A DNA stretch of 64,000 nt from assembly GCF_000143415.4 (NCBI RefSeq), contig NW_003314261.1:4270880-4334879 (forward strand), written 5' to 3'. This DNA comes from Selaginella moellendorffii (taxonomy: Eukaryota > Plantae > Lycopodiophyta). Under the pieces are notes generated by a model. It was not told the origin of the DNA and made no database searches. It saw only the letters and a program-made list of their open reading frames with translations. How positions within the stretch are numbered: the stretch's first letter is position 1; each line of letters starts with the position of its first letter. The position numbers and the translations under genes are program-made. Shown here piece by piece: positions 8,987 to 45,355 of this stretch.

Positions 8987-8997
8987 GCACCCCCTCC

Positions 8998-11539: not shown

Positions 11540-12228
11540 AAGCTCTATTTCGTTAAAGTGGGATTTATTCAGTAAAATGGGACTAGGTACAAATTTTCAA
11601 GTATTTGAAAATGACGTGAAATTATATATTTTTTGTCCAGGGGCTAGACATATCTGGGGCATGGTGACTAGCGCGGTGACTTTGTGTCCAGACTGAGTCC
11701 ATCTGGTTGTATAAAAAATCTCATTGTCAAGGTGAACAAGCCGAATCTGAAGCTAAAGAAGAGCGATGGCATGCGCGCACACACTATTTGTTTGTTCATT
11801 GAACGTGTGGTGAGCTTTCCAAGATGAACGTCATTCCTATTAGCCAAACATATAACTTAATGGTGAGAACATTTAGATATTATTCAATGTTATCTTTTTC
11901 TAACGAATCTAATTGTGAAGGTGTAGCAAGAGGCATTGCTAGTCTGGAGAAGTCATTTAACTCATTTGACCCTTAGTGTATTTTCATGAAACTAAATAAC
12001 ATTCATATTATTAAGGAATTTCTCTAGTACCTTTTTTTTACGACATAGAGGCTTGCATTTCTTTCAAAGGTGATTTAGTAAAAGGCCTGAGGGCACATGC
12101 CATTCTATTTCTCAGACCGGTATTAAGATATACTAGTGCAAAGGGCCACATGCCATCACGCCTCCTCTGATTCAGATTCGGATTGTTCACCTTGAAATAA
12201 AATACATTAGAAACTTAGTAAAGGAATA

Positions 12229-15200
12229 TTAATGAATCTCACCTTGAACCCGGGTTATGAATGCTCTTGCTGCATCTCTTGCATGGTCTGGCAAGGTGAT
12301 GGTGGCACTCTGCTTCCGCATCCAACCATGCACAACATTATCCACCGATATGCTCATGCTGGGATCCCTTGGATTCAGCACCCATCTCTTTTCTAGGCAA
12401 TCCTTCGTATATCCGGAACTTGGCTTGAACCACTCCACAGTTACATTGAAGGAGTTAGTTTCCGCGTCCTCCTCTGCATCAGTGATGCAGCGCCCCACCC
12501 ATATCATTTGTTTTTTATTACTGGGTCTGACAAGCACGACCATTCCTTTGCAGACCTGTACTGGATTGAATGCTGAATCCGGCTTCTTGTTCCTCGGCCC
12601 ACAATAGTGATCCTCAACATCGTTATCTGTCACTGCATTTCCAGAGGACATTGTTCCGCTACTATCTGGTGCTCTGGGTTCTAGCCAAAAGGACTCTTCC
12701 AATTCTTCATATACAACCGGCCCATTTTGGATAGCAGATATAATCTTCTCCCAGTATTCGAGCAAAGGCTTGCACCTCTGAAAATAGGATTCTCCACCAA
12801 ACACCAACCCCCTCTTCCAGAAGGCAATATGCTGTCTAATCCCGGCCACTATACTTTCCTGGTCTTTGAGTCCATCCGGGTGCATCGGCCGTGGGGAACC
12901 CTGAGGAATCATAGGTTCCCCAGTTATGGGATCTCTCTTGAAGAGTTCAATGCCGTCCACTGGCAGCCACACTGTGTCCCATTCTCTCATCTTGTACCTC
13001 ATCACTGGAGCACCGTCACGCATGCTGAAATGAAACTGAAGAGGCTTGGAGTGGCCAATCAGCGTTTCGGATCCGTCCCTGATGTAGCCTCTTACAAACC
13101 CCTTAAAGTCTGGAACCTCTGTCACAAGTGCAGCTTCAACAGTGCCTTTGATGCAATTTTGGAATTCATCGTAGAGTTGTGGGAGGGTGAGGACATTGGA
13201 TTGCCGGAGGGACTCTGCCAGGTGACTGAACATGGCATCGACGTCTTCATGAGTGTGCCCAACCATGAGAAAGCCAAGTGTAACCGTTTCAAATATGCCT
13301 TTGGCAACAAGCATCGCCAAGTACGCGAAGACGTACATGTTTTTGTTCTCACTGCCAGCATTGTCTGTTTGGAGCAGAAGATGGGGTGGAAGGCCACATC
13401 GGCCAAAAGAACTTCCTTGAGATTCTGCTTCGTTTGGATGAGACTGTGCATTCACCGGGCGACCAGCCTCGTCGTAATGGCATGAGGCCTCACGTGATAA
13501 CCCTACAATCTGACGGCCAACATATTCACTGGGATGGCATGGGGCCCCACGCGATACTGCAAGCCTTTGCTCCTCCTCCAGCTGAACCCTGTATGGGGTT
13601 CGATCGACAAGGGCCTTATGCAAGGGTTGGCCGTTCAGCTCAGTCTGCGCACTTTGCAGAGACCTTAAGTGTTTTGCTAAGGACGCAATCATCATGTTTG
13701 CACCCCCGCCACCCCATAGAGGTACAAAGAAGTTCCCATAGTTCTGGGCACCATGCCCATGAGCGATTATGCCAAACAGAGACACAGGCAGCTGCATGGA
13801 TGAAGAGATTGCCTTGGGGGCAGGATTGAGTCGAGGTAAGCACGTCTTTTTCTGATCCATTTTGTCGTGGATGATGCAGAGGTAAGAATCAGGTCTCTCC
13901 ATGGAGAGAATCCTGTTATGATAATATGCAGTCCTGCAGCTTCTCTGCTCGATGTTGTGGTCGAGCCGCCTTCTAACCAACGTCTCTCGCTCTTGAGCGA
14001 TGCAAGAATTCTTTGACAAAGCCATTTTGATAGCAGTGCATTCGTCACACTTTGAAAAGCTGGAGTACTTTCCTATACTCACATCCCTGAACTTGTTGCT
14101 CCACAATCTACTAAATCTAGATTGGCTCAGCTTCATGTAGCCATTACTCTGGAGTTCCCAATTCACATCTTCCAATATGGCCCCCTTGGTATACATGGAA
14201 GGGAGAACTCGTTGGGTGTCTCGTGTTCCATCTTCCAAGAGGCGGGTTTTATGTGGTTGCTGCTCGCTACATGTCTCGACAAACCTCTTGAAGATTGCCT
14301 CTCCATATACAACATGACCCCTGGTTTTGTGCGTACCGTCGTTCCCATGGACTGCCTGTTGAACCCTTTGTTCCTCGAACTCAGTTTTGATTCTGTAGAA
14401 TGTGGTTCGAGGGACTCCATAAATGATTCTCCATGCCTTCATGCAGACCAAACCCCTCTGGAAGACCATGCCCCCCACCTGATGTTCTGAAGCATCAACA
14501 GATGACCGTAATGCCTCATACACAAAATTGCGAGCTGCCTTCCAGGACAATGTCTTGTATCTTGCTCTCTCCTCTTCAATAGCATCCCAATCAGCATGTT
14601 GACAGCACCTCCTCTTGCAACAAGCAACTGTCGAGACCATTCGAACCTCCATCGCCATTTTCTGCCTTTTCGGTTCGTTGCTCAGATCCCTTTGGCTGTG
14701 CTGTAGGAAGGTGTACTTTCTTTTCCCATGAAGAGATGTTCTGTCATCAGTTGTAGTGGTGTTTGATTGTGAATCCTTTACATTCTCAAACACTAAATGC
14801 CTCAATTTCCACCGCACAATGCTTCCAATAGTCAGACTGTTTTCTTCTGTGTCAACAACCTCTAAAATTGCAACTTCAATATCATCCCAGCCCAATTCTT
14901 GATTAGCAACCGCATCTCTTGGATCGACAACTGTGGCTAAGCCCTCAGCTACCACCTCCCCCTCGGGGTTGTTTAGAAACACCTTTGCCTGAATCCATGT
15001 AGCACGGTTCTTAAGATCCACGGAGGGAACATGCGTCGCACTTGCGCTGTCCCCAACATCTGCTTTCTTCTGCAGATTTTTCAAGGCAACAACAACATTT
15101 ACCCCGACGACCATCTCTCCTCGTTCAATAGCGACCACATTCCCATCGAAGACAGTCTCTACTGATACAGCAGCATTGCCTTCCCCAAGCCTTTGACAGT

Positions 15201-15297
15201 GTATAACAAAGTTCCGATCCATAGACACAAGGGTCCCTTTTGCAACTCTCTTCCCACCATTCAAAATGTAAACCTTTTCCCCAACCCTGAAGGCCAT
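12229..15297 (-). CDS. Intact 1022-aa DDD transposase (Sola1/DUF7869-like)
   Basis: HDKMDQKKTCLP, QTDNAGSENKN, FLMVGHTHEDVDAMFS; FSKCDEC...H zinc motif; uninterrupted ORF inside the TIRs. Confidence 0.9.
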   Translation of the reverse strand: MAFRVGEKVYILNGGKRVAKGTLVSMDRNFVIHCQRLGEGNAAVSVETVFDGNVVAIERGEMVVGVNVVVALKNLQKKADVGDSASATHVPSVDLKNRATWIQAKVFLNNPEGEVVAEGLATVVDPRDAVANQELGWDDIEVAILEVVDTEENSLTIGSIVRWKLRHLVFENVKDSQSNTTTTDDRTSLHGKRKYTFLQHSQRDLSNEPKRQKMAMEVRMVSTVACCKRRCCQHADWDAIEEERARYKTLSWKAARNFVYEALRSSVDASEHQVGGMVFQRGLVCMKAWRIIYGVPRTTFYRIKTEFEEQRVQQAVHGNDGTHKTRGHVVYGEAIFKRFVETCSEQQPHKTRLLEDGTRDTQRVLPSMYTKGAILEDVNWELQSNGYMKLSQSRFSRLWSNKFRDVSIGKYSSFSKCDECTAIKMALSKNSCIAQERETLVRRRLDHNIEQRSCRTAYYHNRILSMERPDSYLCIIHDKMDQKKTCLPRLNPAPKAISSSMQLPVSLFGIIAHGHGAQNYGNFFVPLWGGGGANMMIASLAKHLRSLQSAQTELNGQPLHKALVDRTPYRVQLEEEQRLAVSRGAPCHPSEYVGRQIVGLSREASCHYDEAGRPVNAQSHPNEAESQGSSFGRCGLPPHLLLQTDNAGSENKNMYVFAYLAMLVAKGIFETVTLGFLMVGHTHEDVDAMFSHLAESLRQSNVLTLPQLYDEFQNCIKGTVEAALVTEVPDFKGFVRGYIRDGSETLIGHSKPLQFHFSMRDGAPVMRYKMREWDTVWLPVDGIELFKRDPITGEPMIPQGSPRPMHPDGLKDQESIVAGIRQHIAFWKRGLVFGGESYFQRCKPLLEYWEKIISAIQNGPVVYEELEESFWLEPRAPDSSGTMSSGNAVTDNDVEDHYCGPRNKKPDSAFNPVQVCKGMVVLVRPSNKKQMIWVGRCITDAEEDAETNSFNVTVEWFKPSSGYTKDCLEKRWVLNPRDPSMSISVDNVVHGWMRKQSATITLPDHARDAARAFITRVQGEIH

Positions 15298-15659
15298 TCT
15301 GAAAGTGCAGAAAAGAAGTTAAGACCATACAAAAAATGATTGGAGAATGGCCTAAATCATAACATACCAAACAACCTCAATAGCATGAGGCCACATGCCA
15401 TTATTCAAACATGCTATTGACACCCACATGAAATTTCGCATTCACAAAATTGGCATGAGGCCTCATGCCATCTTGATATACACACAGCTGCAGGCAAGTA
15501 AAAACATACATGACAATACGCTAGCCATGAAATTGCAAGGGCCCAAGATGGCATGTAGCCTCATGCCATTTCTAAATGTGGTCCTAAACCATTCCATGGT
15601 GAACATACCAGGAAGCACAAGTGCCGAATATCAAGAGGAAGCGGTAGCCACACCAAAGA

Positions 15660-15760
15660 CAGTGCCGCTCGCAACACCGCAACTACTCGTAGCGCCGCTC
15701 GCAACACCGTAACTGCTCGTAGCGCCGCTCGCACAAACTGCCACTCGCATAAACTGCCGC
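15660..15760. repeat. GC-rich ~30-bp tandem repeats upstream of the transposase
   Basis: GCGCCGCTCGCAACACCGYAACTRCTCGTA repeated about 3 times. Confidence 0.7.
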
Positions 15761-16592
15761 TCGCAATGGCGCTCGCAATGCCGCAACCGCTTGTAGACGC
15801 ATAAACCACAGCTCACAACGCCGCTTACACAAGCAGCGCTCACTGCGCTCAGCGGAACCAAGAACACGGCGCACAAAAATGATAGACCTAGGAATGAGTT
15901 CGAGAATTCAAAAATAACACACGCTTGAACGTCACATCAAATCCTCTGACAAACCAGATCTTATGATTCCTCTGACAAATTTCAAACTGAGTAGCTTCTA
16001 GACTTTGCTGTCGGAGGTTGAACTTTGTCACATCATGTCCTTGCCTCGATCCAGCTGTGCCATGTCAGTGATTCGAACTTTGCCATGCCATGTCAGCGAT
16101 CCGCGCCAAGATTATTCGCCGTGTAAAGGAATAATTATGCTGTGTGTGTACGTCCATTTATGGCAATATAAGGCCACATGCCATTCAAAGAATAATGCTA
16201 GTCGAGCATTTTTTGGTGCATTTTTGGGTTCAAAATTGCATGAGCCCACACGCTATAAAGTTTACCTGTACCAAAAATAGAAACAGCTTTATTTACTTGG
16301 GAATTTATATGGTTGAGGCATTTTTAAACTTACAAACACATGCCCTACTTACATTCCTTTGGTTGCTTAAAATTCAAAAATATTATAAACCTTTCTTTTT
16401 GCATTTTCAATGTTTTCAATTATGGTTTTTGATTTTCGTAGGACCAGCCTAGTAATCTATTTGCATCCCGTCATGTTTATAGCTAGCTTTCGTTTGTCCC
16501 CTTCGCTAGCCTGAGATACATCTGCTCGGCATCTGCCTCTTACAGCATTTGCCCAGAAAGGGCATCTTTCTTCACGCAGCATTTGCCACATG

Positions 16593-16624
16593 TTTAGGGT
16601 TAGGGTTTAGGGTTTAGGGTTTAG
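16593..16624 (+). repeat. Interstitial plant telomere repeats (telo-box cluster)
   Basis: TTTAGGG TTAGGG TTTAGGG TTTAGGG TTTAG; also at 35830-35855 and degenerate at ~36700. Confidence 0.85.
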
Positions 16625-17875
16625 CAATTCAGTAGCTTGATAAACATGCAAATACAGAACTTGATGCAAAATCCTTGGATATGTCACAATGCCCCTAGGA
16701 CCATAAACACATTTCAATAGAGAGGGTCCTTTCATTTCATAACTCCTTACGTAGATCTTGGTGAAACCAGAGTTAGTGAAGTTGGTTTCTTGTGATCCCA
16801 CATCTGATTGTGATGTCCCTTTGCAGTGTCGATGGAAAGGTCAATGCACACCAAACTGTAGAATCTTGGAGCAAAATAACGGTCGGATCTATGGCAAATG
16901 CCCCTGAAACATTGTAAGGCTCGTGTGGTTTCATGTGGTGTCCGATCGAGATGCTTCTTTGCAGGGTCATCAAGAAGGACATTGTATACCATTCTGTAAA
17001 ATCTAGTTGCGATCTAACGGTTGGATCTCCAGGAAACTCAAAACAATCTCGCGCGACTCAGAATATTCTAGGAATATACTCCTATGTGCTCCTGAAAATG
17101 GCATGCGGCCCCACGCCATTCAAGAGATAACGCCAGATGACGCCGAGCATTTTTTGGTGCATTTTTTGGGATCAAAATTGCATGAGCCCACATGCTTGAA
17201 TGTCACATCAAATCCTCTGACAATTTATTTAGCTGAACATCTGGCATTTTTGGAAATACAAGATGCTTTGGAATATCCAATCATGCATGGTATAAATATA
17301 GCGAGGGTATTAAATGATATCCCAATCATAATCTTTCTTTTGGATTTCGCGTGCATGCAGTCCGAGGAATGATGACGTTGCGGATTTCTTTTGGATTTCA
17401 CGCATGCGCGCGCCGATCCAGAAATTAATGGTGGCGCCCAAGTCCGAGAAATGATGACGTGGCGGGATTACCAACCGTCGTGACATTTCGTGCGTGTGAG
17501 GTTAGGTTTTGCATTTTGCTTCGTACTCGCGCTCGCATCGCGCTCCCACTCGCGCTCGCATCGCGCTCCCACTCGCGCTCCCACTTCTCTACAGGTTTCT
17601 CGTGTGCATCGGCGTCCACTCGCGCTTGCATCACACTCGCGCTCGCATCGCGCTCGTGTGCATCGGCGTCCACTTCAAGACACACCCAGTTTGTAACTTC
17701 GCCGCCAACTCCGCCGCCCACTCCGCCACCCACACGCAGCCCACTTGGCGTCCCGGGAGATTTCAGCGCCACTCTCCAACTGTAAGTGGCAGAGTAGCCT
17801 TGCTGCTACGATCCGCTGCACACACAGTGCACATTCGCCAGCGAGTCCGGTTGTCACGCCTCCATTCGGCTTCAA

Positions 17876-20800
17876 ATGGTAAGTCTTTTAGGCCAAGTAG
17901 AAAATGGCATGAGGCCACATGCCATTCAGTAGCAACATTGGCATGCACCGATTGGGCTCTCGAGTGCAGTCCGGTTACAGATGGCGTGTAGCCTCACGCC
18001 ATCTTAGGATGCAGCCTCAAGACATCTGATGCAGTGGTGAATGGCGTGTGGCCTCACGTTATTTCCAGCTACTAGCTTTTCATCTGTCAGCTCTAATTGT
18101 TGTGCATTTCTGAACAGGCGAGGAATTGCGTTCTTCTTCCAGCCACTGTCAATGTGGATGCAGAGAAGGGGGAGGAGCTCACCAGTTGGACTTTCGGGAT
18201 GGAAGGCGAGGATCTGAGGCTGTACAACACAGATGGTGGGAGAAAAGAATGCATGGGGATCCTCATCCAAGTGACAGACACTCCATGCAGTTCCATGCAA
18301 GAATATGGACTGGCACTTGTGGTAGAGACAGCGTCTGCCTTCAAGATCCACCTTGCACATCCTAGCGGCTTCCCGGAGGGGGGCAGCGGCTATGAGGAAT
18401 TCCTAGAGGGAGCTAGGGAGAGGTTGTCCAGGAGGCCCACAATTTCAAAGACGCTGCGGGTCTATGAAGATCACATGGAATCCACGGATCTCACCTACGG
18501 CGATGTTCAAAAACTATATTCCAACATTGAGCCGTTGAGAGTGACTCCAGTTCGCAAAGCAAAGGGGAAGGGGGTCGATCTGGAAACTACCTCGAAGCAG
18601 AAAAGGGTGGTCAAGCTCAAGCCGACGTCCGACTCTCCTGCTCCAAAAAAGAAGCTACTCAGTGATGCCATTGCCTCGGGTTCGAACACTACACCCACCA
18701 AAAAGAAGAGCCGCAAAGAGCAGAAAGAGCAAGAAGAGGCAGCAAAAATCGTCGCAGATAATAGTACTTGTTACTATTCCAACAAAGTATATACAATCGA
18801 CGTGAGCCGTATCGACATCCAAAGCAAATACAACCACAGGCTAGTATCTGATGAGTGGGTGGAGAAATTGAAGCAGAAGATGCTGGCAAGTCCAGTAACA
18901 CCCGACATCGCAGACGTGATCCCCTACTACCAAAAAATGAAGGGCGAGATGAGGTTTCCAGACTTGATCAATAGGAAGGTGTTGGACGATCAGAACATCC
19001 GGTTCTATGCCGTCTCCGGGCAGCATTCTAGCTTGGCGATGCAAGAGATAGTTGTGGATATTATGGTGGGTGAGGAGGTGAAGAAAGTCTTCAAGACAAG
19101 AGTTGTCCGCCTGATAAAAGGCAACTCGCCCCTCCGATCTATCATATACATCTCCCACGCGCAGAATGTCAAGCAAGAAACGTGCTACAAATCGGGTCTG
19201 CACGAGACATTGGCACGAACACGGAAGCTCTGGGTTCAACTGAAGAAGCCACAAAAACCAGGACAAGGACGTGCACTAGCAACTAGCGCCTGGCAGGTAA
19301 GCCTCGTTGTATGTGGCATAGCATGTGGCCTCACGCCATTTCCATTGCAGGAATTCTCGAGTCTTCTCTCGAAAACACTGGGGGTCAATGACACACTCAG
19401 CATCCATAACATTCTACTCGCGACAAAAGTTGTTTTTGACAAATAGGTAGATGTGCTGAGGAGGTACCATGACGGGGAGTTGCCAAACTCAATGGGTGTG
19501 GAGGACGGCCGGAAGCCCAATGATTTGAAGCTGAACGCCTTGCGTTTCTCGCGGTCTCTAGACGACGACGACCTTCTGACAGTGGCTAATGCTCTTCTAC
19601 GTGGTGAGGTTGTCTTCAACAAGACCAAAATGACTCCCGGCCATATTGTGACATACAAGGACTTGTGCATGACTCTGAGAGCTCGTGCGCTATTGAAGGA
19701 TTGGATCTTCGAGCAAGTGGCCGTGGAGAGGGTGAGCATCGACACCACGCAAGAGATGATGGAAGCGCTGGAGTTGTCAAATGAAGACATCGACGAGTAC
19801 GTGAAGGGGGCCCCCAAGTTCATCGATCTGCTGCGGGATGCCACGAAAAGTAAAGCTGAGAAGTTGGATCAGTATCCAAATTTCATTAAGATTGATGTCG
19901 ACCGCCGGCTTCAGAAACAGCTCGACCCCGCAGCAGAGGCCTATCGAGAACCTTACCGGGTATACTTGAATTCGGATGAGGATCAAAGGTGGAGGAGCAT
20001 CGTTTCCCACGGAGATGAGCAGGTCAAGAACATCTTTTGTGTGATGGACTTCACAAACGAGGAGATCACTCATGTAGACGAAGTCAGCTCCATCATTGAC
20101 TTAATGGTGGGACTTGCGGAGGTGGAATCTTCAGTCCACTATATGATCTACGACTCCGAATCCTATCACAAGTTCTGGAAGGCCTTGAACGAGGTGAAGG
20201 CTCGGTTGAAAGGCAAGGAGATGCGGGAGATCCATGGGATAATGGTTAAGAAGAAGATACCGACGAATGTCCGCATCTTCACACTCGCCCTTGTTATTGG
20301 TCCTGCAGTAGAGTGGGACTGGAGTGACTTCCCAGCTTCGTTCGACAAGGCCAATCGAATTGATCTGAGGGAGGTCAATTTACCCGTGCCTGAGGAACTG
20401 AAGACGGCTATGGAGCTTTCGAATCCAAAGAAAGCTCCAGGTGTAGCATGGGAAATGCTCAGCTGGGTCTTCAACGCAATAGCGGGTGGGTCACCTGCTT
20501 CTGACTCCAAGGGCAAATGCGTTGTCGAGTACAACTGCGGCGGACTATTCTTTCGAGCCGCACTACTCAAGGGTGTCCCGTGTGTTGCGGTGACAAACTC
20601 CATTGAAGAGATGACTTCAATGGAGCATATAATTACAGTTGCCAAAGAAAAACAGTATCTTCTCTGCGAACCTGGTGAGTACGCACTTTAAGTTTAAATG
20701 TTATCTCACAAGCTCTGTATGCAGGAGCGTGGCCACCCCCAGATGCTGAAACGGTGTTAACAGCTACTGTTGAAGATACCCATGTTGGGCCGAGCTCACA

Positions 20801-23498
20801 ACCTGCACAAGGTAAGGTCACGTGAGGCCTCACGCCATTTTGATTATAGATCGTTGTGAATATTCAGACACGAGGACTGAAAAGCGCACTGGTGGCGCAT
20901 CGAAGAAGGACAAACAGAAAAGCAATAGGAAAAAAGGAGGTACAAATTATATTTGCAATGGCGTGTGGTCTCATGCCATTCCTTGCAGGAGAAACTTCTT
21001 CAAAGGCAAAACAGGCAAGCACCAGCCAAGCTCAAACTGACAGTGGTCATAAAAAGCGAAAGCACGTTGGACAGTCGTCGAGATCAAAGGCGTTTGATTC
21101 GAAAAGGAAGAAGGGCAACGAAAAGATGATAGGTAATGCCTCGCGGTTATGGCGTGTGTGCTCATGCCATTCATTGCAGATCAAGGGCTGAGTGAAAGCA
21201 GGCAGTCACCACCTCATGACTCAGATTCCTATGGCAGACTCCCCTTCCCCAATCTCAATGGAGAGGTACAATGGATGAGGGAAGCTTTTCAAGGCAGGGC
21301 CACGTTTTTCTCATCTCGTCGTCTTCGAAGGGTGCAAGAACGTGCAGAAACCATGTTAAGACAGTCGGGTGAGGATACGGTCCTAGGTCACGCACTAAAA
21401 CAGGCTATGGATGTCTTGTATTTTGAGATGGAGATTCGGCCAGATGATTTTCCCAAGATGGTCCTGGAAGAACAAGCCATCCAGCCTGAGCAGCCTATGG
21501 AAGAAATGCAGGAGGGGGATGAGGAGCCAGAGAAAGATAATGAGCAAGAAGAGCAGAAGGACGAAGAGGAGGACAAAGAAGAGGAGGACGAAGAAGAGGA
21601 GGACGAAGAGGACTTGGATGGTCCTCACAATGGTGACGATCACAATAACGACGACGACGATGATGACGACGATGGCCAGCCTGAGGTGGCCAAAGAGCGG
21701 CGGAGGAAGGTCATACAAGACAAACCATCAGGTAAATAATAATACATCCATTCCTAACCTTTTACCATTTCTAACATTGTCCATGTAGGTCGCAGAGCAA
21801 ATGGTAAGTAGAGATTATTCAGTTGAATTTACAAACTCTAGCCTTTAGTGTCGAGGAAGGATAGTGCCAAGCAAGGGTCGAAACGTATGTCCAATCCTTC
21901 AGAATCAGCAGTGCGCTCAAGTGATATCGGTCCTAGTTCCTCAATAGCAGTTGATGGTAAATACAGTATAGTCGATTCAATGTGCTAATGAGTTTGTTTT
22001 TAGTAGCACGGGAGGATACCATCTCAATCGAAGGGAGATATTTGGACATGCATATGGATCCGCCAGTGGACTCTACTTGGCTGCAAGAGTCATCAGAGCT
22101 GGTGGAGGCTACTATCCATATCAACGCCAAGCAAGCTGACCACGCTCCACTTGATGCTGCCCATACCACTGAGTCAATCTTGTCCACGTATCCAACTGAC
22201 GGTGACCAGGCGCCATTGGACCCACATGAGGCCGCCCCAGCCGCCGAGCCGGTCGTATCCTCATTTCCAACGGACTCAACGTGTGCCCAATCGTCTGACT
22301 ATGCGCCGTTGGAACCTCCCTACACCGCCCCTGCTGCCTGTTCGGTCATGTCCACTTTGCCAACGGAGGCACAAGCTGAAATGGCGTGTGATCACATGCC
22401 ATCGGAACCACCCCATGCCACTGTTGAGCCAGTTGTACCAGAGTCTACAGCTGAAATGGCATGTGCCCACACGCCATCGGATGCGATTGACCCCACATTG
22501 CAGAGGAGAGTATTTCCGCCCTTCACGTTTCCTCGACCAAAACCCTCTCAACGACCATCGGGAGCAACATTCGCTAATATTGTAGATGGTAAAATTGACT
22601 TGTACCATTTTTTATGCTGACGCATTTCATTTCAGAGTCACGGCGAAGGTACTGTATCGTTTTTGATCTGAACGGTGTCCTTTTCTCCCATGAGCGTGGC
22701 TCGTCCTCGAATGTCATTGCACCCTCCAAAGCCTGCGGTCGCAAGTTGGTCAAAAGAGACAGATTCACATTAATCACACGGGAGAAACTGCGGGATCTAA
22801 TAATGACCATGCGACACTTAAAACAGAGGGCCGGGTTCAATTTGCAATTGGGAGTTTAGACATCCATGATGCGCCACAATGCATTAACGTTGCTACAGAT
22901 GATGCACGATCAGACGCGAGTAATATTACCATTTGACTTTCTCCTAACACAGGAGGATTGCTTGACTATGGTCCATGTGAGGGGTAGCAAGCCCATCTTC
23001 GTCAAGCCAGAGGCTGTAGTGATGAACCGGACTGCTAGCTCAAGTGAAATCCTCATCATCGATGACTCGCCGATTAAAACTGCAGCGAACACGCACACAT
23101 ATGCAGTGCACCCCATCTCTTGCAGTATGGAAACTAGGGAGAAGAAACCGTATGTTCTGGGGGACCTTGCAAAACGGCTTGGAGCGATGGTGATAGAGAA
23201 CCGGCCAGTCCAGGAGGTGGCTGCAGAAATCAACCAAATGGCAGATGGAACGGTATATCAGAAGCCATTTGATCGGACAGACACCAGTCATCATTTATGG
23301 CATGTATATTGTCTAGCCAAGCACTATCCGTATCTCCATAATCTGCTCAACCGGATGGGTTCTTCGACCACTAAACATGAGCGTGGACGTATTAGAGAAG
23401 AGAGGGCATTACTATTGGGTTTAAATCCTGATAGTGTGGAGAGTGATGAAATTCCAAGATTATTGTATAGGCGTTGGAGGCAAAAAATAACAGTCTGA
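17876..23498 (+). CDS. Multi-exon transposon cargo gene: ParB/Srx-like + degenerate N4C/N6A MTase-like fold + acidic linker + FCP1/NIF HAD phosphatase-like (lesions in this copy)
   Basis: ATG|GTAAGT at 17876, intron 17879-18117 joins in frame to ARNCVL. Further GT-AG introns at 19297-19350, 20675-20724, 20812-20867, 20940-20988, 21133-21179, 21732-21788, 22589-22635 and others. Motifs AVSGQHS; KCVVEYNCGG..AALLKG; VFDLNGVL, IIDDSPIK. TAG stops at 19444 and 22857. Confidence 0.75.
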
Positions 23499-23940
23499 GA
23501 TGGCATGTATTTATTTAAAAATGTAACTTATTATGGCATGGGGTTCCATGCAATTGTATTAATATTAAAAGACAATTCTTTGAGAGGATTTGCATTATAC
23601 TAGAAGTGTTACAGCATGTTATTGGAAGTCTACGAAGTTGTTTTATTAATAATGGGAAAGTAAAGATTGAATGGGGACTTGGGCTCCACCTAGACTCGGA
23701 GCAACTGAGCCAATATTAAAAGGATGGAAAGAAATTGGACGACGATGACAAGGAGAAGAGAGAGGTGAAGCAGTGGCAGGGGGAGGAGAAGTGATTGAGT
23801 AGACATTTCCTTGTTTAAAATAAAATGGCATGTGCCTCAATGCAGTTGAATTTTGTTATATTTATATACTATATAAAGGTTTGGAAACCTTATTTTACAA
23901 GTGGGATAATGACAATTCCCACTTTAACGAAATAAAGCTT

Positions 23941-24710: not shown

Positions 24711-24711
24711 C
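24667..24711 (-). promoter_or_regulatory. -1 ribosomal frameshift signal (G GGA AAC + 11-bp stem)
   Basis: Gag frame TCG GGA AAC, pol in -1 frame (GGG AAA CGA); downstream stem GTCCAAACAGA/TCTGTTTGGAC. Confidence 0.85.
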
Positions 24712-25658: not shown

Positions 25659-25736
25659 CAAGAAGAAAGAAAAGAAAAGGGGGAAAAAGACAAAGGCAAT
25701 CAAATAATCAAAATGAGCTAAAAGAAAAGCAAAAAA

Positions 25737-25752
25737 CCACAATCTGAATCAA
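25737..25752 (-). promoter_or_regulatory. Self-priming-type PBS complementary to the R region of the LTR
   Basis: 16-nt perfect inverted match to 25845-25860, which lies just downstream of TATATATA (25882-25889) in element orientation. Confidence 0.85.
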
Positions 25753-25754
25753 AC

Positions 25755-29519: not shown

Positions 29520-30409
29520 GACTACAAGGGGAAACGCGTGGAAGCGTCTCCATTTTATCGGGGGGAAGAACCGCTATAGCTATAGCAGCCAATAACGAGC
29601 CCGTATAACAAAGTGAGGCAGAACATGTGGAGGGATGACTCAGCAAGGAGATCTGACGTGGCAGGGAGGGGTTTGTTATAGAGGATCGAGCGGCAGATCA
29701 GCAGGGGACTTCTTGGGATGCAGCAGGGCAGTGATAAAAAGCTCTATTTCGTTAAAGTAGGATTTATTCAGTAAAATGGGACTAGGTACAAATTTTCAAG
29801 TATTTGAAAATGATATGATACTTTCGTGAAATTATATGTTTTTTGTCCAGGGGCTAGACATATCTGGGGCATGGTGACTAGCGCGGTGACTTTGTGTCCA
29901 GATTGAGTCCATCTGGTTGTATAATAAATCTCATTGGCAAGGTGAACAAGCCGAATCTGAAGCTAAAGAAGAGCGATGGCATGCGCGCACACACTATTTG
30001 TTTGTTCATTGAGCGTGTGGTGAGCTTTCCAAGATGAACGTCATTCCTATTAGCCAGACATATAACTTAATGGTGAGAACATTTAGATATTATTCAATGT
30101 TATCTTTTTCTAACGAATTTAATTGTGAAGGTGTAGCAAGAGACATTGCTAGTCTGGAGAAGTCATTTAACTCATTTGACCCTTAGTGTATTTTCATGAA
30201 ACTAAATAACATTCATATTATTAAGGAATTTCTCTTGTACCTTTTTTTTACGACATAGAGGCTTGCATTTCTTTCAAAGGTGATTTAGTAAAAGGCCTGA
30301 GGGCACATGCCATTCTATTTCTCAGACCGGTATTAAGATATACTAGTGCAAAGGGAAAAAGGTATTTGGTGATCAAGTAAATGGCATGAGGGCACACGCC
30401 ATTATAAGC

Positions 30410-30667
30410 CTAAGCGCTAGTGGACACCTCCTTTTTGGTACTCTCAGCGGTACTATCATCCTTCTCCGGGTCAGTTGTTTTGCTTTGGATTGTTGTCTTT
30501 AACGTTACTGAGGCGTTTTTGATAGTTGTTAATATTGCCGTTTGTTCAGAAAAATGATCACCTGGAGTATAGTACGGGGAGTTTAGAAGACTTATATATT
30601 CTACATCTTCACCTATCTCCTTCTTCGTCTCCTTTTCTGCCTCACTTACAGATTTTGTGCTTGCCAT
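30410..30667 (-). CDS. Small 85-aa hypothetical ORF present only in transposon copy 2
   Basis: MASTKSVSEAEKETKKEIGEDVEY...; protein-like composition, flanked by palindromes; no recognised domain. Confidence 0.35.
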   Translation of the reverse strand: MASTKSVSEAEKETKKEIGEDVEYISLLNSPYYTPGDHFSEQTAILTTIKNASVTLKTTIQSKTTDPEKDDSTAESTKKEVSTSA

Positions 30668-31380
30668 GAGAATGCTCTTCACCCTAAAATATGGAGTTTG
30701 TTGTGTTATAAAAGGAAACCAACACACACGCTGCAAGGGAATGATGGTACATAAAGCACGTAAGCCTACAATATGGGTTTATGTGCCATTAATATGGGCC
30801 ACATGCCATATTATTAGATTTATGCACGTGTGATTGGTAAATGCATATGTCACATCATCTTTGTTTTACCTCACACACTATATCAGGCCTAATGAACCAT
30901 ATCACATGTGCGCACATGCTATATATATGGAGAAGTATTATGCAAGGATAGAAAAATTCAATGCATGATTGTGGAGAGCAATGGCATGAAGCCACATGCT
31001 AAATAACATTTTAGAGAAAGAATTAAAATAGAAACATGCAAATAGTACTGAGTGGACCAAGACTTAGAAGTGCACAATTGAATGAGGTATTTCTAATAAA
31101 TATTTCACTCACCTCATATAGGAATGGCTACCACTCTCAAATGGCATATCGCCTCATGCCATCACCACGCAATTTGTTATAACAATCCGATGAATTCATA
31201 TTCGGCTTGTTCACCTTGAACTTTAAGTAAGATTTGCTAGAACAACTAAGAATTTATACTTGTTATTTGTATCATCTCACCTAGGAATGGCGTAAGGCCA
31301 CATGCCATCACGCCTCCTCTGATTCAGATTCGGATTGTTCACCTTGAAATAAAATACATTAGAAACTTAGTAAAGGAATA

Positions 31381-34300
31381 TTAATGAATCTCACCTTGAA
31401 CCCGGGTTATGAATGCTCTTGCTGCATCTCTTGCATGGTCTGGCAAGGTGATGGTGGCACTTTGCTTCCGCATCCAACCATGCACAACATTATCCACTGA
31501 TATGCTCATGCTGGGATCCCTTGGATTCAGCACCCATCTCTTTTCTAGGCAATCTTTCGTATATCCAGAACTTGGCTTGAACCACTCCACAGTTACATTG
31601 AAGGAGTTAGTTTCCGCGTCCTCCTCTGCATCAGTGATGCAGCACCCCACCCATATCATTTGTTTTTTATTACTGGGTCTGACAAGCACGACCATTCCTT
31701 TGCAGACCTGTACTGGATTGAATGTTGAATCCGGCTTCTTGTTCCTCGGCGCACAATAGTGATCCTCAACATCGTTATCTGTCACTGTATTTCCAGAGGA
31801 CATTGTTCCGCTACTATCTGGTGCTCTGGGTTCTAGCCAAAAGGACTCTTCCAATTCTTCATATACAACCGGCCCATTTTGGATAGCAGATATAATCTTC
31901 TCCCAGTATTCGAGCAAAGGCTTGCACCTCTGAAAATAGGATTCTCCACCAAACACCAACCCCCTCTTCCAGAAGGCAATATGCTGTCTAATCCCGGCCA
32001 CTATACTTTCCTGGTCTTTGAGTCCATCCGGGTGCATCGGCCGTGGGGAACCCTGAGGAATCATAGGTTCCCCAGTTATGGGATCTCTCTTGAAGAGTTC
32101 AATGCCGTCCACTGGCAACCACACTGTGTCCCATTCTCTCATCTTGTACCTCATCACTGGAGCACCGTCACGCATGCTGAAATCAAACTGAAGAGGCTTG
32201 GAGTGGCCAATCAGCATTTCGGATCCGTCCCTGATGTAGCCTCTTACAAACCCCTTAAAGTCTGGAACCTCTGTCACAAGTGCAGCTTCAACAGTGCCTT
32301 TGATGCAATTTTGGAATTCATCGTAGAGTTGTGGGAGGGTGAGGACATTGGATCGCCGGAGGGACTCTGCCAGGTGACTGAACATGGCATCGACGTCTTC
32401 ATGAGTGTGCCCAACCATGAGAAAGCCAAGTGTAACCGTTTCAAATATGCCTTTGGCAACAAGCATCGCCAAGTACGCGAAGACGTACATGTTTTTGTTC
32501 TCACTGCCAGCATTGTCTGTTTGGAGCAGAAGATGGGGTGGAAGGCCATATCGGCCGCAAGAACTTCCTTGAGATTCTGCTTCGTTTGGATGAGGCTGTG
32601 CATTCACCGGGCGACTAGCCTCGTCGGAATGGCATGAGGCCTCACGTGATAACCCTACAATCTGACGGCCAACATATTCACTGGGATGGCATGGGGCCCC
32701 ATGCGATACTGCAAGCCTTTGCTCCTCCTCCAGCTGAACCCTGTATGGGGTTCAATTGACAAGGGCCTTATGCAAGGGTTGGCCGTTCAGCTCAGTCTGC
32801 GCACTTTGCAGAGACCTTAAGTGTTTTGTTAGGGACACAATCATCATGTTTGCACCCCCGCCACCCTATAGAGGTACAAAGAAGTTCCCATAGTTCTGGG
32901 CACCATGCCCATGAGTGATTATGCCAAACAGAGACACAGGCAGCTGCATGGATGAAGAGATTGCCTTGGGGGCAGGATTGAGTTGAGGTAAGCACGTCTT
33001 TTTCTGGTCCATTTTGTCGTGGATGATGCAGAGGTAAGAATCAGGTCTCTCCATGGAGAGAATCCTGTTATGATAATATGCAGTCCTGCAGCTTCTCTGC
33101 TCGATGTTGTGGTCGAGCCGCCTTCTAACCAACGTCTCTCGCTCTTGAGCGATGCAAGAATTCTTTGACAAAGCCATTTTGATAGTAGTGCATTCGTCAC
33201 ACTTTGAAAAGCTGGAGTACTTTCCTATACTCACATCCCTGAACTTGTTGCTCCACAATCTACTAAATCTAGATTGGCTCAGCTTCATGTAGCCATTACT
33301 CTGGAGTTCCCAATTCACATCTTCCAATATGGCCCCCTTGGTATACATGGAAGGGAGAACTCGTTGGGTGTCTCGTGTTCCATCTTCCAAGAGGCGGGTT
33401 TTATGTGGTTGCTGCTCGCTACATGTCTCAATAAACCTCTTGAAGATTGCTTCTCCATATACAACATGACCTCTGGTTTTGTGCGTACCGTCGTTCCCAT
33501 GGACTGCCTGTTGAACCCTTTGTTCCTCGAACTCAGTTTTGATTCTGTAGAATGTGGTTTGAGGGACTCCATAAATGATTCTCTATGCCTTCATGTAGAC
33601 CAAACCCCTCTGGAAGACCATGCCCCCCACCTAATGTTCTGAAGCATCAACAGATGACCGTAATGCCTCATACACAAAATTGCGAGCTGCCTTCCAGGAC
33701 AATGTCTTGTATCTTGCTCTCTCCTCTTCAATAGCATCCCAATCAGCATGTTGACAGCACCTCCTCTTGCAACAAGCAACTGTCGAGACCATTCGAACCT
33801 CCATCGCCATTTTCTGCCTTTTCGGTTCGTTGCTCAGATCCCTTTGGCTGCGCTTTAGGAAGGTGTACTTTCTTTTCCCATGAAGAGATGTTCTGTCATC
33901 AGTTGTAGTGGTGTTTGATTGTGAATCCTTCACATTCTCAAACACTAAATGCCTCAATTTCCACCGCACAATGCTTCCAATAGTTAGACTGTTTTCTTCT
34001 GTGCCAACAACCTCTAAAATCACAACTCCAATATCATCCCAGCCCAATTCTTGATTAGCAACCGCATCTCTTGGACCGACAACTGTGGCTAAGCCCTCAA
34101 CTACCACCTCCCCCTCGGGGTTGTTTAGAAACACCTTTGCCTGAATCCATGTAGCACGGTTCTTAAGATCCACGGAGGGAACATGCGTCACACTTGTGTT
34201 GTCGCTAACATCTGCTTTCTTCTGAAGATTTTTCAAGGCAACAACAACATACCCCGACGACCATCTCTCCTCGTTCAATAGCGACCACATTCCCATTGAA

Positions 34301-34447
34301 GACAGTCTCTATTGATACAGCAGCATTGCCTTCCCCAAGCCTTTGACAGTGTATAACAAAGTTCCGATCCATAGACACAAGGGTCTCTTTTGCAACTCTC
34401 TTCTCACCATTCAAAATGTAAACCATTTCCCCAACCCTGAAGGCCAT
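31381..34447 (-). pseudogene. Disrupted transposase of copy 2
   Basis: Colinear with 12229-15297 but with a frameshift near 34250 and several stops. Confidence 0.92.
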
Positions 34448-34599
34448 TCTGAAAGTGCAGAAAAGAAGTTAAGACCATACAAAAAATGATTGGAGAATGG
34501 CCTAAATCATAACATACCAAACAACTTCAATAGCATGAGGCCACATGCCATTATTCAAACATGCTATTGACACCCACGTGAAATTTCGCATTCACAAAA

Positions 34600-34827
34600 T
34601 TGGCATGAGCCCTCATGCCATTAGTGGTACCACTAATGGCATGAGGCCTCACGCTATCTTTGGCCCCTGCTAGCCTGTTGCTATATTCCTTTTGCCTTGC
34701 TGCAACTGTATATATTTTTGTGTGTATGACTAGTCACCCATACAAAAATATATACAGTTGCAACAAGGCAAAAGGAATATGGCAATAGGCTAGCAAGGGC
34801 CAAAGATGGCATGAGGCCTCATGCCAT
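34600..34827. repeat. Nested loopless inverted repeats (192-bp and 58-bp palindromes)
   Basis: Arms symmetric about TGACT|AGTCA (34731/34732) and about GGT|ACC (34628/34629). Confidence 0.9.
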
Positions 34828-35164
34828 CTTGATAAACACATAGCTATAGGTAGGTAAAGAAACTATTGGCAATATGCTAGTGATGAACTTGCAAGCCCCA
34901 AGATGGCATGAGCCCTCATGCCATTAGTGGTACCGTAGCGCTGCTCGCACCACCACAACTGCTCGTAGCGCCGCTCGCACAAACTACCACTCACATAAAC
35001 TGTCGCTCGCAATGGCGCTCACAATGCCGCAACCGCTCTTAGACGCATAAACCACAACTCACAACGCCGCTTACACAAGCAGCGCTCACTGCGCTCAGCG
35101 GAACCAAGAACACGGCGCACAAAAATGATAGACCTAGGAATGAGTTCGAGAATTCAAAAATAAC

Positions 35165-37092
35165 ACACACTTGAACGTCATATCAAATCCTTTGACAAAC
35201 CAGATCTTATGATTCCTCTGACAAATTTCAAACTGAGTAGCTTCTAGACTTTGCTGTCGGACGTTGAACTTTGTCACATCATGTCCTTGCCTCGATCCAG
35301 CTGTGCCATGTCAGTGATTCGAACTTTGCCATGCCATGTCAGTGATCCGCGCCAAGATTATTCGCTGTGTAAAGGAATAATTATGTTGTGTGTGTACGTC
35401 CATTTATGGCAATATAAGGCCACACGCCATTCAAAGAATAATGCTAGTCGAGCATTTTTTTGTGCATTTTTGGGTTATGAGCCCACACGCTATAAAGTTT
35501 ACCTGTACCAAAAATAGAAACAGCTTTATTTTCTTGGGAATTTAAGTGGTTGAGGCATTTTTAAACTTACAAACACATGCCCTACTTACATTCCTTTGGT
35601 TGCTTAAAATTCAAAAATATTATAAACCTTTCTTTTTGCATTTTCAATATTTTCAATTATGGTTTTTGATTTTCGCAGGACCAGCCTAGTAATCTATTTG
35701 CATCCCATCATGTTTATAGCTAACTTTCGTTTGTCCCCTTCGCTAGCCTGAGATACATCTGCTTGGCATCTGCCTCTTACAGCATTTGCCCAGAAAGGGC
35801 ATCTTTCTTCACGCAGCATTTGCCACATGTTTAGGGTTTAGGGTTTAGGGTTTAGCAATTCAGTAGCTTGATAAACATGCAAATACAAAACTTGATGCAA
35901 AATCTTTTGATATGTCACAATGCCCCTAGGACCATAAACACATTTCAATAGAGAGGGTCCTTTCATTTCATAACTCCTTACGTAGATCTTGGTGAAACCA
36001 GAGTTAGTGAAGTTAGTTTCTTGTGATCTCACATCTGATTGTGATGTCCCTTTGCAGTGTCGATGGAAAGGTCAATGCACACCAAACTATAAAATCTTGG
36101 AGCAAAATAACGGTCGGATCTATGGCAAATGCCCCTGAAACATTGTAAGGCTCGTGTGGTCTCATGTGGTGTTTGATCGAGATGCTTCTTTGCAGGGTCA
36201 TCAAGAAAGACATTGTATACCATTCTGTAAAATCTAGTTGCGATTTAACGGTTGGATCTCTAGAAAACTCAAAAAAATCTCACGCGTGTCAGAATATTCT
36301 AGGAATTACTCCTATGTGCCCCTTAAAATGGCATGCGGCTCCACGCCATTCAAGAGATAACGCCAGATGATGTTGAGCATTTTTTGGTGCATTTTTTGGG
36401 ATCAAAATTGCATGAGCCCACACACTTGAACGTCACATCAAATCCTCTAACAAACCAGATCTTATAATTCCTCTGACAAATTTTAAACTGAGTAGCTTTT
36501 AGACTTTGCTATCGGACGTTGAACTTTGTCACATCATGTCCTTGCCTCGATCCAGCTGTGCCATGTCAGTGATTCGAACTTTGCCATGCCACGTCAGCAA
36601 TTCGCACCAAGATTATTCACCATGTAACTGCTCGGCATCTGCCTCTTACAGCATTTGCCCAGAAAGGGCATCTTTCTTCAGGCAGCATTTGCCACATATT
36701 TAGGGAGGGTTTAGGGTTTAGCAATTCAGTAGCTTGATAAACATGCAAATACAAAACTTGATGCAAAATCCTTTGATATGTCACAATGCCCCTAGAACCA
36801 TAAACACATTTCAATAGAGAGGGTCCTTTCATTTCATAACTCCTTACGTAGATCTTGGTGAAACCAGAGTTAGTGAAGTTAGTTTCTTGTGATCCCGCAT
36901 CTGATTGTGATGTCCCTTTGCAGTGTCGATAGAAAGGTCAATGCACACCAAACTGTAGAATCTTGGAGCAAAATAACTGTCGGATCTATGGCAAATGCCC
37001 CTAAAACATTGTAAGGCTCGTGTGGTCTCATGTGGTGTCCGATCGAGATGCTTCTTTGTAGGGTCATCAAGAAGGAAATTGTATACCATTCT
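35165..37092. repeat. Internal tandem duplication (~1.25-kb unit plus a partly deleted second unit)
   Basis: CTTGAACGTCAYATCAAATCC starts at ~35170 and again at ~36425; downstream blocks repeat. Confidence 0.85.
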
Positions 37093-37752
37093 TTATTTAG
37101 CTGAACATCTGGCATTTTTGGAAATATAAGATGCTTTAGAATATCCAATCATGCATGGTATAAATATAGTGAGGGTATTAAATGATATCCCAATCATGAT
37201 CTTTCTTTTGGATTTCACGTGCATGCAGTCCGAGATATGATGACATTGCGGATTTCTTTTGGATTTCACGTGCATGCATGCGCGCGGCGATCCAGAAATT
37301 AATGGTGGCGCCCAAGTTCGAGGAATGATGACGTTGCGTGATTACCAACCGTTGTGACATTTCGCGCGTGTGAGGTTAGGTTTTGCATTTTGCTTCATAC
37401 TCGTGCTTTCATACTCGCGCTCGCACACTCGCGATCACGCTCACATTCGCGCTCATCTACCTTCTCTACAGGTTTCTCGTGTGCATCGGCGTCCACTCGG
37501 GCTCGCATCACGCTCGCATCGCGCTCGTGTGCATCGGCGTCCACTTCAAGACACACCCAGTTTGTAACTTCGCCGCCAACTCCGCCGCCCACTCCGCCAC
37601 CCACACGCAGCCCACTTGGCGTCTCGGGAGATTTCAGCGCCACTCTCCAACTGTAAGTGGCAGAGTAGCCTTGCTGCTACGATCCGCTGCACACACAGTG
37701 CACATTCGCTAGCGAGTCCGGCCTCGATTGTCACGCCTCTATTCGGCTTCAA

Positions 37753-43700: not shown

Positions 43701-44082
43701 CTCTTGCAGTATGGAAACTAGGGAGAAGAAACTGTATGTTCTGGGGGACCTTGCAAAACGGCTTGGAGCGATGGTGATAGAGAACCGGTCAGTCCAGGAG
43801 GTGGCTGTAGAAATCAACCAAATGGCAGATGGAACGGTATATCAGAAGCCATTTGATCGGACAGACACCAGTCATCATTTATGGCATGTATATTGTCTAG
43901 CCAAGCACTATCCGCATCTCCATAATCTGCTCAATTGGATGGGCTCTTCGACCACTGAACATGAGCGTGGACGTATTAGAGAAGAGATGGCATTACTATT
44001 GGGTTTAAATCCTGATAGTGTGGAGAGTGATGAAATTCCAAGATTATTATATAGGCGTTGGAGGCAAAAAATAACAGTCTGA
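37753..44082 (+). pseudogene. Cargo gene of copy 2 (more exons than copy 1; intact phosphatase exon, frameshift and stops upstream)
   Basis: Colinear with 17876-23498; extra exons at ~40955-41625; GVWTS intact; frameshift at ~39685, stops at ~40232 and ~40484. Confidence 0.8.
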
Positions 44083-45355
44083 GATGGCATGTATTTATTT
44101 AAAAATGTAACTTATTATGGCATGGGGTTCCATGCCATTGTATTAATATTAAAAGACAATTCTTTGAGAGGATTTGCATTATACTAGAAGTGTTACAGCA
44201 TGTTATTGGAAGTCTACGAAGTTGTTTTATTAATAATGGGAAAGTAAAGATTGAATGGGGACTTGGGCTCCACCTAGACTCGGAGCAACTGAGCCAATAT
44301 TAAAAGGATGGAAAGAAATTGGACAACGATGACAAGGAGAAGAGAGAGGTGAAGCAGTGGCAGGGGGAGGAGAAGTGATTGAGTAGACATTTTCTTGTTT
44401 AAAATAAAATGGCATGTGCCTCAATGCAGTTGAATTTTGTTATATTTATATACTATATAAAGGTTTGGAAACCTTATTTTACAAGTGGGATAATGACAAT
44501 TCCCACTTTAACGAAATAGAGCTTTAAAGGACATGGCGAGAGCTAAGGCTGGGGGGAGGATTGGCTTGGGAACGGCGTGACGAGCAAGGGCAATCAAGAT
44601 CTAAGCACAATAAGGGCTTTGACCTAGTGTGGACTCCAGTAAGCCTCGCCCGGGCTGACGCCCATTTTAGAACCGCTACATTGACCCGTGTCCAAATTTG
44701 CAATCTAGCACCATTCCATATTTAGTACGTTTTGAGCTTGTCCCAAAGACTAACTCCTGATACTAAGGGAGGCTTGGGGTGAAAGCCCAAAGTGTGTGTT
44801 TTTCAAGGGGGGCTTGTGGGGGGTTCCAAATGTATAGTAGGGATAGTGGGTAGGTCGAGCATGGCCAACTAACCTGAGGCATAGTCTAGCTCCCACTTGC
44901 ATGCCTGTCCTTGTTCTGCGTTCGGCTTGGGTCTAAGCCCAAGTTTCATTCCATGATAGCTGGTGGAATACCCATGTCCTCACGTTAGGCCACCGGTATG
45001 CTGAAATAGCACTAGACTCTGTTTGGCTTCGTTTTGTGTGCTGGTCCTAGCATTCGGATGCTGGTTACTCTAGGACTGTTCCAAGTCTCTCTATGCCCCT
45101 ATCCCTTTGCTCCTTGGGCTATATGCTTGGGAGTTGTTCCGTGGTTTAGTTCTGTCACTCCTTGGCTCCATACTTGGGAGTTTGGCACTATTCCTTTGTT
45201 CAATGGCCCAAGGCCTTAATACTCGGGTTCCACACCACGTTCCTTTGGACACATGGCATCTGTCATGTGGCACAAAGAGGGTTTAAGTTCCGCTTTGTGG
45301 TGTTATCCTATGGTAAATCACCATAGGATAAAGGGTAAAAACCACATGAGCTACA

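Follow-up and report, generated by a model that had tools for sequence, protein, structure and literature searches.

A 22-bp palindrome tagging a Sola-like transposon family of Selaginella moellendorffii, and a predicted ParB-fold protein as its candidate reader

The locus described here raises the question of what reads a 22-bp palindrome that recurs throughout a large DNA transposon of the lycophyte Selaginella moellendorffii, and whether it is read as double-stranded DNA or as RNA. The stretch analysed, hereafter the window, comprises 64,000 nt (assembly GCF_000143415.4, contig NW_003314261.1, positions 4,270,880 to 4,334,879, forward strand) and holds two copies of the element, which carries a transposase gene and, on the opposite strand, an accessory gene (ORF2). 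The palindrome is a private tag of this one Sola-like plant DNA transposon family. With a probability of roughly 0.55, judged from sequence and structural modelling, it serves as the double-stranded binding site for a dimer of the element's own ParB-fold accessory protein.

11540..23940, transposon copy 1, 12,401 bp; terminal inverted repeats (TIRs) of ~24 bp and a 4-bp target duplication, ATCC
29739..44524, transposon copy 2, 14,786 bp; 4-bp target duplication, TAAA; more decayed
11766..23846, no strand, palindrome array of copy 1, 22 matrix sites
Site starts in copy 1, first half: 11766, 12082, 12135, 13477, 13534, 15380, 15450, 15548, 16235, 17098, 17177
Site starts in copy 1, second half: 17904, 17981, 18041, 19318, 20817, 20958, 21149, 22381, 22456, 23533, 23825
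29976..44430, no strand, palindrome array of copy 2, 30 matrix hits and the site at 40987; includes the perfect copy at 34806-34827
12156..15297, minus strand, transposase gene with DUF7869 (PF25273, E 3.6e-42); DDD triad in HDKMDQ, QTDNAG and HEDVD
17876..23498, plus strand, accessory gene ORF2, predicted 11 exons and 1,642 codons

Occurrence and architecture of the palindrome

A pattern search allowing up to two mismatches returned 43 matches in the window, against a mean of 0.08 and a maximum of 2 in 100 shuffled sequences. A position matrix was derived from the best 33 of these matches; at a score of at least 10 it marks 22 sites in copy 1 and 30 sites in copy 2, and the other 36,813 bases contain none. 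The 17 copies listed by the initial annotation were all located at their starts, as was the perfect palindrome; a few sites are damaged, that at 12135 being a half site at a deletion junction, that at 20817 having a decayed left arm with three mismatches, and that at 40987 scoring below the matrix threshold. The sites follow one another about every 0.1-1.8 kb from end to end of the element, and site clusters are spread over it more evenly than random, the largest gap between them being smaller than under random cluster placement (p 0.024 and 0.007 for the two copies). A search of copy 1 against Rfam gave no match.

The consensus half-site reads ATGGC(A/G)TG followed by (A/T)G. The initial annotation had described conserved 8-bp arms around a free 6-bp centre of constant length. 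The constancy of length was borne out, the 6-bp spacer giving 14 and 20 matches in the two copies and spacers of 4, 5, 7, 8 and 9 bp none in either, whereas the centre proved to be partly conserved, with positions 10 and 13 being G and C in 29 of the 33 sites, and arm position 3/20 is looser than the remaining arm positions. Lone half-sites are not enriched (0.48-0.61 per kb inside the element versus 0.34-0.46 per kb outside).

The pattern of variation points to recognition of DNA. Among the 33 non-redundant sites, no covariation was found for the variable pair 6/17 (18 paired versus 17.6 expected, odds ratio 1.17, p 1.0) or for the pair 9/14 (11 versus 12.0), and A-C mismatches (8) are as frequent as G-U (6). 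Half-site positions 5-6 are CA in 44, CG in 21 and TG in 2 of 68 half-sites, counts to be read with the caveat that sites are not independent and that detection favours the consensus. The 44:2 asymmetry is worth attention because decay of methylated cytosine should yield CA and TG alike; the change breaking position 5 is rare relative to its reciprocal. Such decay is evident in the element at large, with C-to-T rates of 6.1% in CG, 3.3% in CHG and 1.2% in CHH contexts. Taken together, the independent variation of the arms, the rarity of the position-5 change and the scarcity of complete stems (the full 8-bp stem folds in two of nine motif-bearing tiny introns and is absent from the other seven) favour double-stranded DNA recognition by a dimer. 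The operator for a dimeric protein suggested by the initial annotation is thus probably the right description, being supported by the fixed spacing, a dyad that includes the inner bases, the lack of covariation, the confinement to the element and the presence in cis of a gene for a predicted ParB-fold protein.

The assignment to Sola was made by matching the superfamily description, and the element is accordingly called Sola-like. DUF7869 is linked with Sola1. The transposase carries a DDD triad, the 4-bp target duplications of both copies were checked against the empty site, and both the TIRs of ~24 bp and the sizes of 12.4 and 14.8 kb lie within the range of Sola elements (TIRs of 11-1124 bp; 2-15 kb or more); the superfamily, including its 4-bp target duplication, is described in PMC10741241. 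The two copies are 95-98% identical. Public contigs span the whole element with several distinct end junctions, which indicates a repeated family, their depth not being equal to copy number.

ORF2 and its predicted protein

The domains assigned to ORF2, all on the plus strand, are as follows.

18781..19176, ParB-fold domain, with SGQHSSLA where ParB has GERRxRA
19960..20674, region with weak likeness to N4/N6 DNA methyltransferases, perhaps a degenerate one; limits approximate
22650..23096, terminal NIF/HAD phosphatase-like domain of ORF2 with the motif DLNGV; position transferred from copy 2

The AlphaFold model of the first region has a predicted local distance difference test score (pLDDT) mostly of 84-95, and it is in this model that an N-terminal ParB fold is recognised. 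Foldseek matched it to Noc (E 7e-5), and alignment with VIA-align to ParB gave a Z of 11.5 with a root-mean-square deviation of 2.0 over 93 aligned residues. ParB, Noc and KorB (Z 8.8-11.5) outrank sulfiredoxin and SbnI (at most 8.2). Sequence-profile searches against solved structures returned no ParB. A representative homologue search returned 23 matches, from which the spurious repeats P0037 and P0039 were omitted before alignment; the N-terminal family has 21 usable members at 24-37% identity, and G, Q and H of GQHSSLA are nearly invariant in 25 aligned sequences. Searches for full-length ORF2 homologues found none, no relative was found in viral contigs, and two loci were matched in prokaryote genomes.

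The methyltransferase-like region had no direct family match. A 21-residue match (E 0.01) links it to the homologue P0055, which matches PF01555 (E 0.0039) and MTase_II (E 6.4e-5), and Atlas matches to N6_N4_Mtase clusters at 0.84 serve as a lead only. The NIF/HAD-like assignment derives from PF03031 on copy 2 at 43183-44079, which passes the Pfam cut-off (E 1.4e-5).

Relatives of the transposase were also searched for palindromes of their own. In 80 metagenome loci with a related transposase (499,727 bases), the window palindrome was not found. Locus L003 has eight copies of its own 16-bp palindrome upstream of the transposase, L004 three to four copies of a 22-bp palindrome, and L063, L058 and L041 five, five and four copies of their own. 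In a group of related loci, a 12-bp palindrome, chosen after inspection of the same 14 loci, gave 5-11 matches in 11 of them versus 0-3 in shuffles. A de novo test, requiring at least four copies and at least two more than the best of three shuffles, was passed by 7 of 49 loci of at least 3 kb (six near-duplicates dropped; 25 shorter loci lay outside this set), a result that is suggestive, one control also having passed. In four of the five loci tested, the palindromes sit in decayed tandem repeats with cores, picked by likeness, that are more alike than their flanks. Beside one related transposase (L058:7085-8086) there is a frame with a methyltransferase motif-I-like stretch, recognised by eye, for which no Pfam or PADLOC match was obtained.

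Several results weigh against assigning the palindrome to the ORF2 protein. Chief among them, a search beside the 80-82 loci with a related transposase, some of them palindrome-bearing and with up to 10 kb of upstream sequence, turned up no ParB-like gene; this is tempered by the shortness of the contigs and the decay of the copies, the closest related loci ending 0.1-2 kb upstream and the ParB-fold domain of the window lying 3.5 kb away. The arginine-rich GERRxRA motif, described in PMC7333895, is replaced by GQHSSLA. Helices follow the ParB fold in the model, and profile searches gave no helix-turn-helix there. Both copies share a stop at ORF2 codon 426, and the element is nearly silent in RNA runs X8-X10. 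Between the two copies the motif differs at 10 of 396 positions and other non-coding DNA at 107 of 3824, although similar divergence is expected if both copies are decaying and the comparison has little power. Finally, one of three control stretches of the window used in the de novo test also held a four-copy palindrome cluster.

Should the ORF2 protein nevertheless be the reader, the following course of events may be envisaged. Small direct and inverted duplications, involving spacer as well as exon-intron units, would have multiplied the site, and its copies would have been retained where they cost nothing, conserved coding DNA being avoided. Bound protein would cover the element over its full length and carry the methyltransferase-like and NIF/HAD-like domains to it; by analogy with VANC acting on VANDAL, this coating might protect the expression or mobility of cognate copies from host methylation. 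Since the arginine motif is not kept, the protein may or may not load and slide in the manner of ParB. A fuller ParB/parS-type self-marking, in which the protein loads at the palindromes, spreads over 12-15 kb and shields or re-marks the element against host silencing while the right arm of the site serves as branch point, the word thereby having two readers, the protein for the DNA and the spliceosome for the RNA, is a tentative proposal that we regard as improbable in its entirety.

Other readers and the intron question

The chief rival, possible though doubtful, is that the transposase itself binds the palindromes, either compacting the long element for transposition or activating its own copies. 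The clusters beside related transposases with no detected ParB-like gene speak for it, as do weak TNP1/EN/SPM matches in the N-terminal regions of the transposases (E 0.05 here; 3 of 24 members, best 6.6e-4). According to 10.64898/2026.08.24.746577, the AtMu1 transposase and TnpA are sequence-specific activators, but they bind termini, whereas the sites here are element-wide and densest in ORF2. Furthermore, the palindrome is unlike the terminal repeat, and the repeat core is shared by L003 and L006 with one mismatch even though the palindrome of L003 is different.

An unlikely alternative is a host transcription factor that binds the palindrome as a dimer and turns on the element in a particular cell type. 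Plant DNA transposons do carry host factor sites (PMC13547354); however, the palindrome differs from one related family to the next, as would suit co-evolution with a reader encoded by the element. Two types of host site were considered as candidates: a YY1-type site fits poorly, agreeing with only 10 of 42 half-sites, which also counts against a host reader, and a TCP-type site was judged by eye only.

Equally improbable is a neutral origin, with the copies left behind by local duplications and functionless now. The initial annotation had held that the flanks are unrelated and the array no tandem expansion. The flanks are indeed unrelated on average (mean score 17.4 versus 16.8 under the null), whereas the denial of tandem origin was too strong: 14 of 561 flank pairs lie above the 99th percentile versus 5.6 expected, and about eight site pairs are clear local direct or inverted duplicates, including intron pairs with similarity reaching into the exon. 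These pairs, the decayed tandem repeats of the relatives and the lack of extra motif conservation between the two copies all suit a neutral origin. Most flanks, however, are unrelated while the 22 bases are kept, and the fixed spacer, the CA/TG asymmetry, the avoidance of conserved coding DNA and the even cover of the element are poorly accommodated by it.

The remaining alternative, that the palindrome is an RNA hairpin marking or regulating introns, or a tiny mobile unit that made them, turns on the gene structure of the element. The predicted features concerned are listed below.

17879..18117, plus strand, ORF2 predicted intron 1, 239 nt; palindromes 17904, 17981 and 18041
19297..19350, plus strand, ORF2 intron 2, 54 nt; palindrome 19318; the best-supported intron
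20812..20867, plus strand, predicted intron; palindrome 20817; acceptor at 20849 (38 nt) or 20867 (56 nt), same frame
20940..20988, plus strand, predicted intron, 49 nt; palindrome 20958
21133..21179, plus strand, predicted intron, 47 nt; palindrome 21149
12191-12242, minus strand, predicted 52-nt transposase intron near the 3' end
15299..15608, minus strand, predicted 310-nt 5'-untranslated region (UTR) intron of the transposase gene; palindromes 15380, 15450 and 15548; from sequence only
13477..13555, two palindromes in the transposase coding frame; hypervariable loop, alignment columns 1001-1095, missing in the coral and sponge homologues
22381..22477, 75-bp duplication in a proline-rich ORF2 exon, with two palindromes
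40951..41624, plus strand, copy-2-only segment, 674 bp; six predicted phase-1 introns with in-frame micro-exons

Ten GT-AG introns of ORF2 were picked by eye before translation, and in copy 1 their removal yields a single frame of 1,642 codons interrupted by two stops, at codon 426 and, private to this copy, at codon 1431; unspliced, the region 20600-22700 holds 22-32 stops per frame. Two homologues from the liverwort Riccia align across intron 2 with an exact 18-residue gap and score 200 versus 179 and 183 versus 162 for the spliced versus the unspliced form. Each of the eight later introns is of phase 1, and the exon lengths are multiples of three. In about 12% of each of the raw RNA runs X8, X9 and X10, reads on the two genes were almost absent and none crossed a splice joint; the contig runs X1 and X12 showed no joint at an intron. 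The splicing predicted for ORF2 is therefore supported by reading frame and homology only.

The first predicted intron of each of the two genes holds three palindromes. Site density amounts to 11.3 per kb in ORF2 introns, 2.8 per kb in other non-coding DNA and 0.48 per kb in coding DNA; within ORF2, introns hold 11 sites and exons 2 (p 6e-8). The concentration in tiny introns reported earlier is therefore real as an enrichment, but 15-19 of the 30 copy-2 sites lie outside ORF2 introns and four in coding exons, the four coding sites being confined to the hypervariable transposase loop and the proline-rich ORF2 duplication. The motif occupies 39-47% of the four tiny introns listed above, for which about 40% had been given, and, as had also been noted, most of the extra copy-2 introns carry it (five of the six, at 40970, 41058, 41190, 41276, 41436 and 41576, counting the sub-threshold site at 40987).

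In seven of nine motif-bearing tiny introns, A16 of the motif stands at -15 to -19, in all seven within CTCAY, and in five of six motif-free tiny introns a branch-like word stands at -15 to -17; the other two motif introns have CCCAY, a site further upstream and a separate branch-like word. The right arm (CTCAY) thus likely doubles as the predicted branch site in introns of 45-55 nt, which would explain how a 22-bp site fits into so short an intron, although common ancestry of some introns could contribute to the pattern.

The enrichment in introns, the overlap of the right arm with the predicted branch site, by which a stem could influence splicing, and the two introns that fold the full stem are what a hairpin or intron-making unit has in its favour. 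Against the hairpin, the variable pairs show no compensatory changes, A-C mismatches are as frequent as G-U, most of the motif introns lack the full stem, and the inner G10 and C13 are kept though unable to pair across a 2-base loop; the many copy-2 sites outside ORF2 introns tell against both forms. Nor is the seeding of introns by the palindrome supported. The position of intron 2 looks ancient, 13 of 18 homologous gene calls breaking off there (judged by eye), so that this intron likely predates the motif. The extra copy-2 introns accompany in-frame exons in a block bounded by 4-base microhomology, keep the phase rule for 12 of 13 exons (the exception, of 37 nt, has 20 additional bases in a public contig), and several of the copies arose through local duplication. 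Loss of the 674-bp block from the copy-1 lineage appears the simpler reading because the block keeps frame; in public contigs the short form has a depth of 93-99 and the long form of 5.5-6.6, depth not being equal to copy number. Introner-like elements are whole introns that are alike and inserted at unrelated sites. Here likeness extends into exons in related pairs, most sites are outside introns, and the introns after 20675 and 40551 are all phase 1, which counts against this class. A hairpin or intron-making unit is the least likely of the explanations.

Comparison with known systems and further features of the locus

The element is a land-plant variant of the self-binding ParB-accessory transposon already proposed in algal papers, and shares with it a ParB-like accessory gene and inverted repeats near this gene. 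These papers describe two precedents. The Ectocarpus Sola1-1_Ec32 (PMC12477816), of 21.5 kb, encodes a 1,104-aa protein with ParB-like and N4/N6 DNA methyltransferase domains, for which binding and modification of its own sequence were proposed; it is a giant Sola1 element with, as here, the accessory gene opposite the transposase strand, but is brown-algal, and the word stem 'palindrom' does not occur in the main text, whereas the present element belongs to a land plant, has a predicted 1,642 codons or more, a NIF/HAD-like domain, a weakly recognisable methyltransferase and element-wide palindromes. The red-algal PAG3 of Plavaka (EnSpm/CACTA) has a ParB-like N-terminal domain, and inverted repeats beside its gene were proposed as binding sites (10.1101/2025.02.11.637652); it differs in superfamily, in its 2OG-oxygenase effector and in having tandem arrays beside the gene, in place of single sites through introns, UTRs and two coding loops.

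Among systems that act by sequence-specific binding, the Arabidopsis VANDAL/VANC system, for which binding and demethylation were shown (PMC5735166), resembles the present one in that short motifs particular to each family lie in introns and between genes and have multiplied through local repeats, and in its repeated exon-intron accessory gene. It differs in belonging to the Mutator superfamily, in its non-palindromic motifs of 8-9 bp and in its unrelated protein. Here, too, the motifs are family-specific and lie in non-coding parts of the element; a match to the VANC families (DUF1985/DUF287) was absent from the Pfam scan of the ORF2 pieces, and the transposase is of DUF7869. The proteins of Spm (TnpA) and AtMu1 are alike in that they are element-encoded, bind family-specific clustered motifs and activate cognate copies, but they bind termini and have no ParB fold (10.64898/2026.08.24.746577). 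With bacterial ParB, Noc and KorB the modelled N-terminal fold is shared (Z 11.5), whereas ORF2 does not keep GERRxRA, lacks a ParA and is a predicted eukaryotic spliced gene with extra domains.

The literature searched, which included few subscription papers and no supplements, held no account of this palindrome or of any Sola element of land plants that has a ParB-like gene. Neither the fusion with NIF/HAD nor the single sites spread over the whole element nor the branch-point overlap appears in the accessible text of the papers compared. For future work the system provides a 22-bp site with sharp limits, a candidate for its reader, homologues in Riccia, and sister families whose differing sites lend themselves to specificity swaps; the predicted coincidence of the site with the branch point would be a clear instance of dual coding. 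If binding and spreading were true, it would represent a second, unrelated plant route to sequence-specific anti-silencing beside VANC, and a possible tool for chromatin targeting.

Several further features were observed. The nearest named relatives of the transposase are from Riccia, and the terminal-repeat core is found again, with a single mismatch, downstream of related transposases, at L003:5307 and L006:2394. Successive ORF2 introns, fourteen in number and of phase 1, at 20675-22635 and 40551-43219 separate symmetric exons, some of only 15-36 nt, a pattern consistent with duplicated exons or with cassette splicing in the part of ORF2 that encodes the protein's disordered middle. In copy 2, nested inverted duplications at 34600-34934 surround four palindromes, and the predicted donor of the transposase 5' intron is lost. 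Short TTTAGGG arrays, like a plant telomere or telobox, occur in the spacer between the two divergent genes (16592-16624, 35829-35855 and 36699-36720); like the decay in CG, CHG and CHH contexts, they are indicative of a land plant. Upstream of ORF2, a 40-base stretch (17779-17818 and 37650-37689) is matched by hundreds of RNA reads leaving it on both sides; the flanks resemble large-subunit rRNA, and the element may thus hold a captured rRNA fragment. Copy 1 is inserted in the pol gene of a Gypsy retrotransposon (8612-26090) with long terminal repeats at 8612-8987 and 25755-26090, and the empty site brings the interrupted gene back into frame. Copy 2, whose target has an uninterrupted homologue at 27615, is inserted in the right repeat of a unit with 151-bp direct repeats (27470-29738), and this unit also contains an OHCU decarboxylase-like frame at 28505-29035 (PF09349, E 4e-24).

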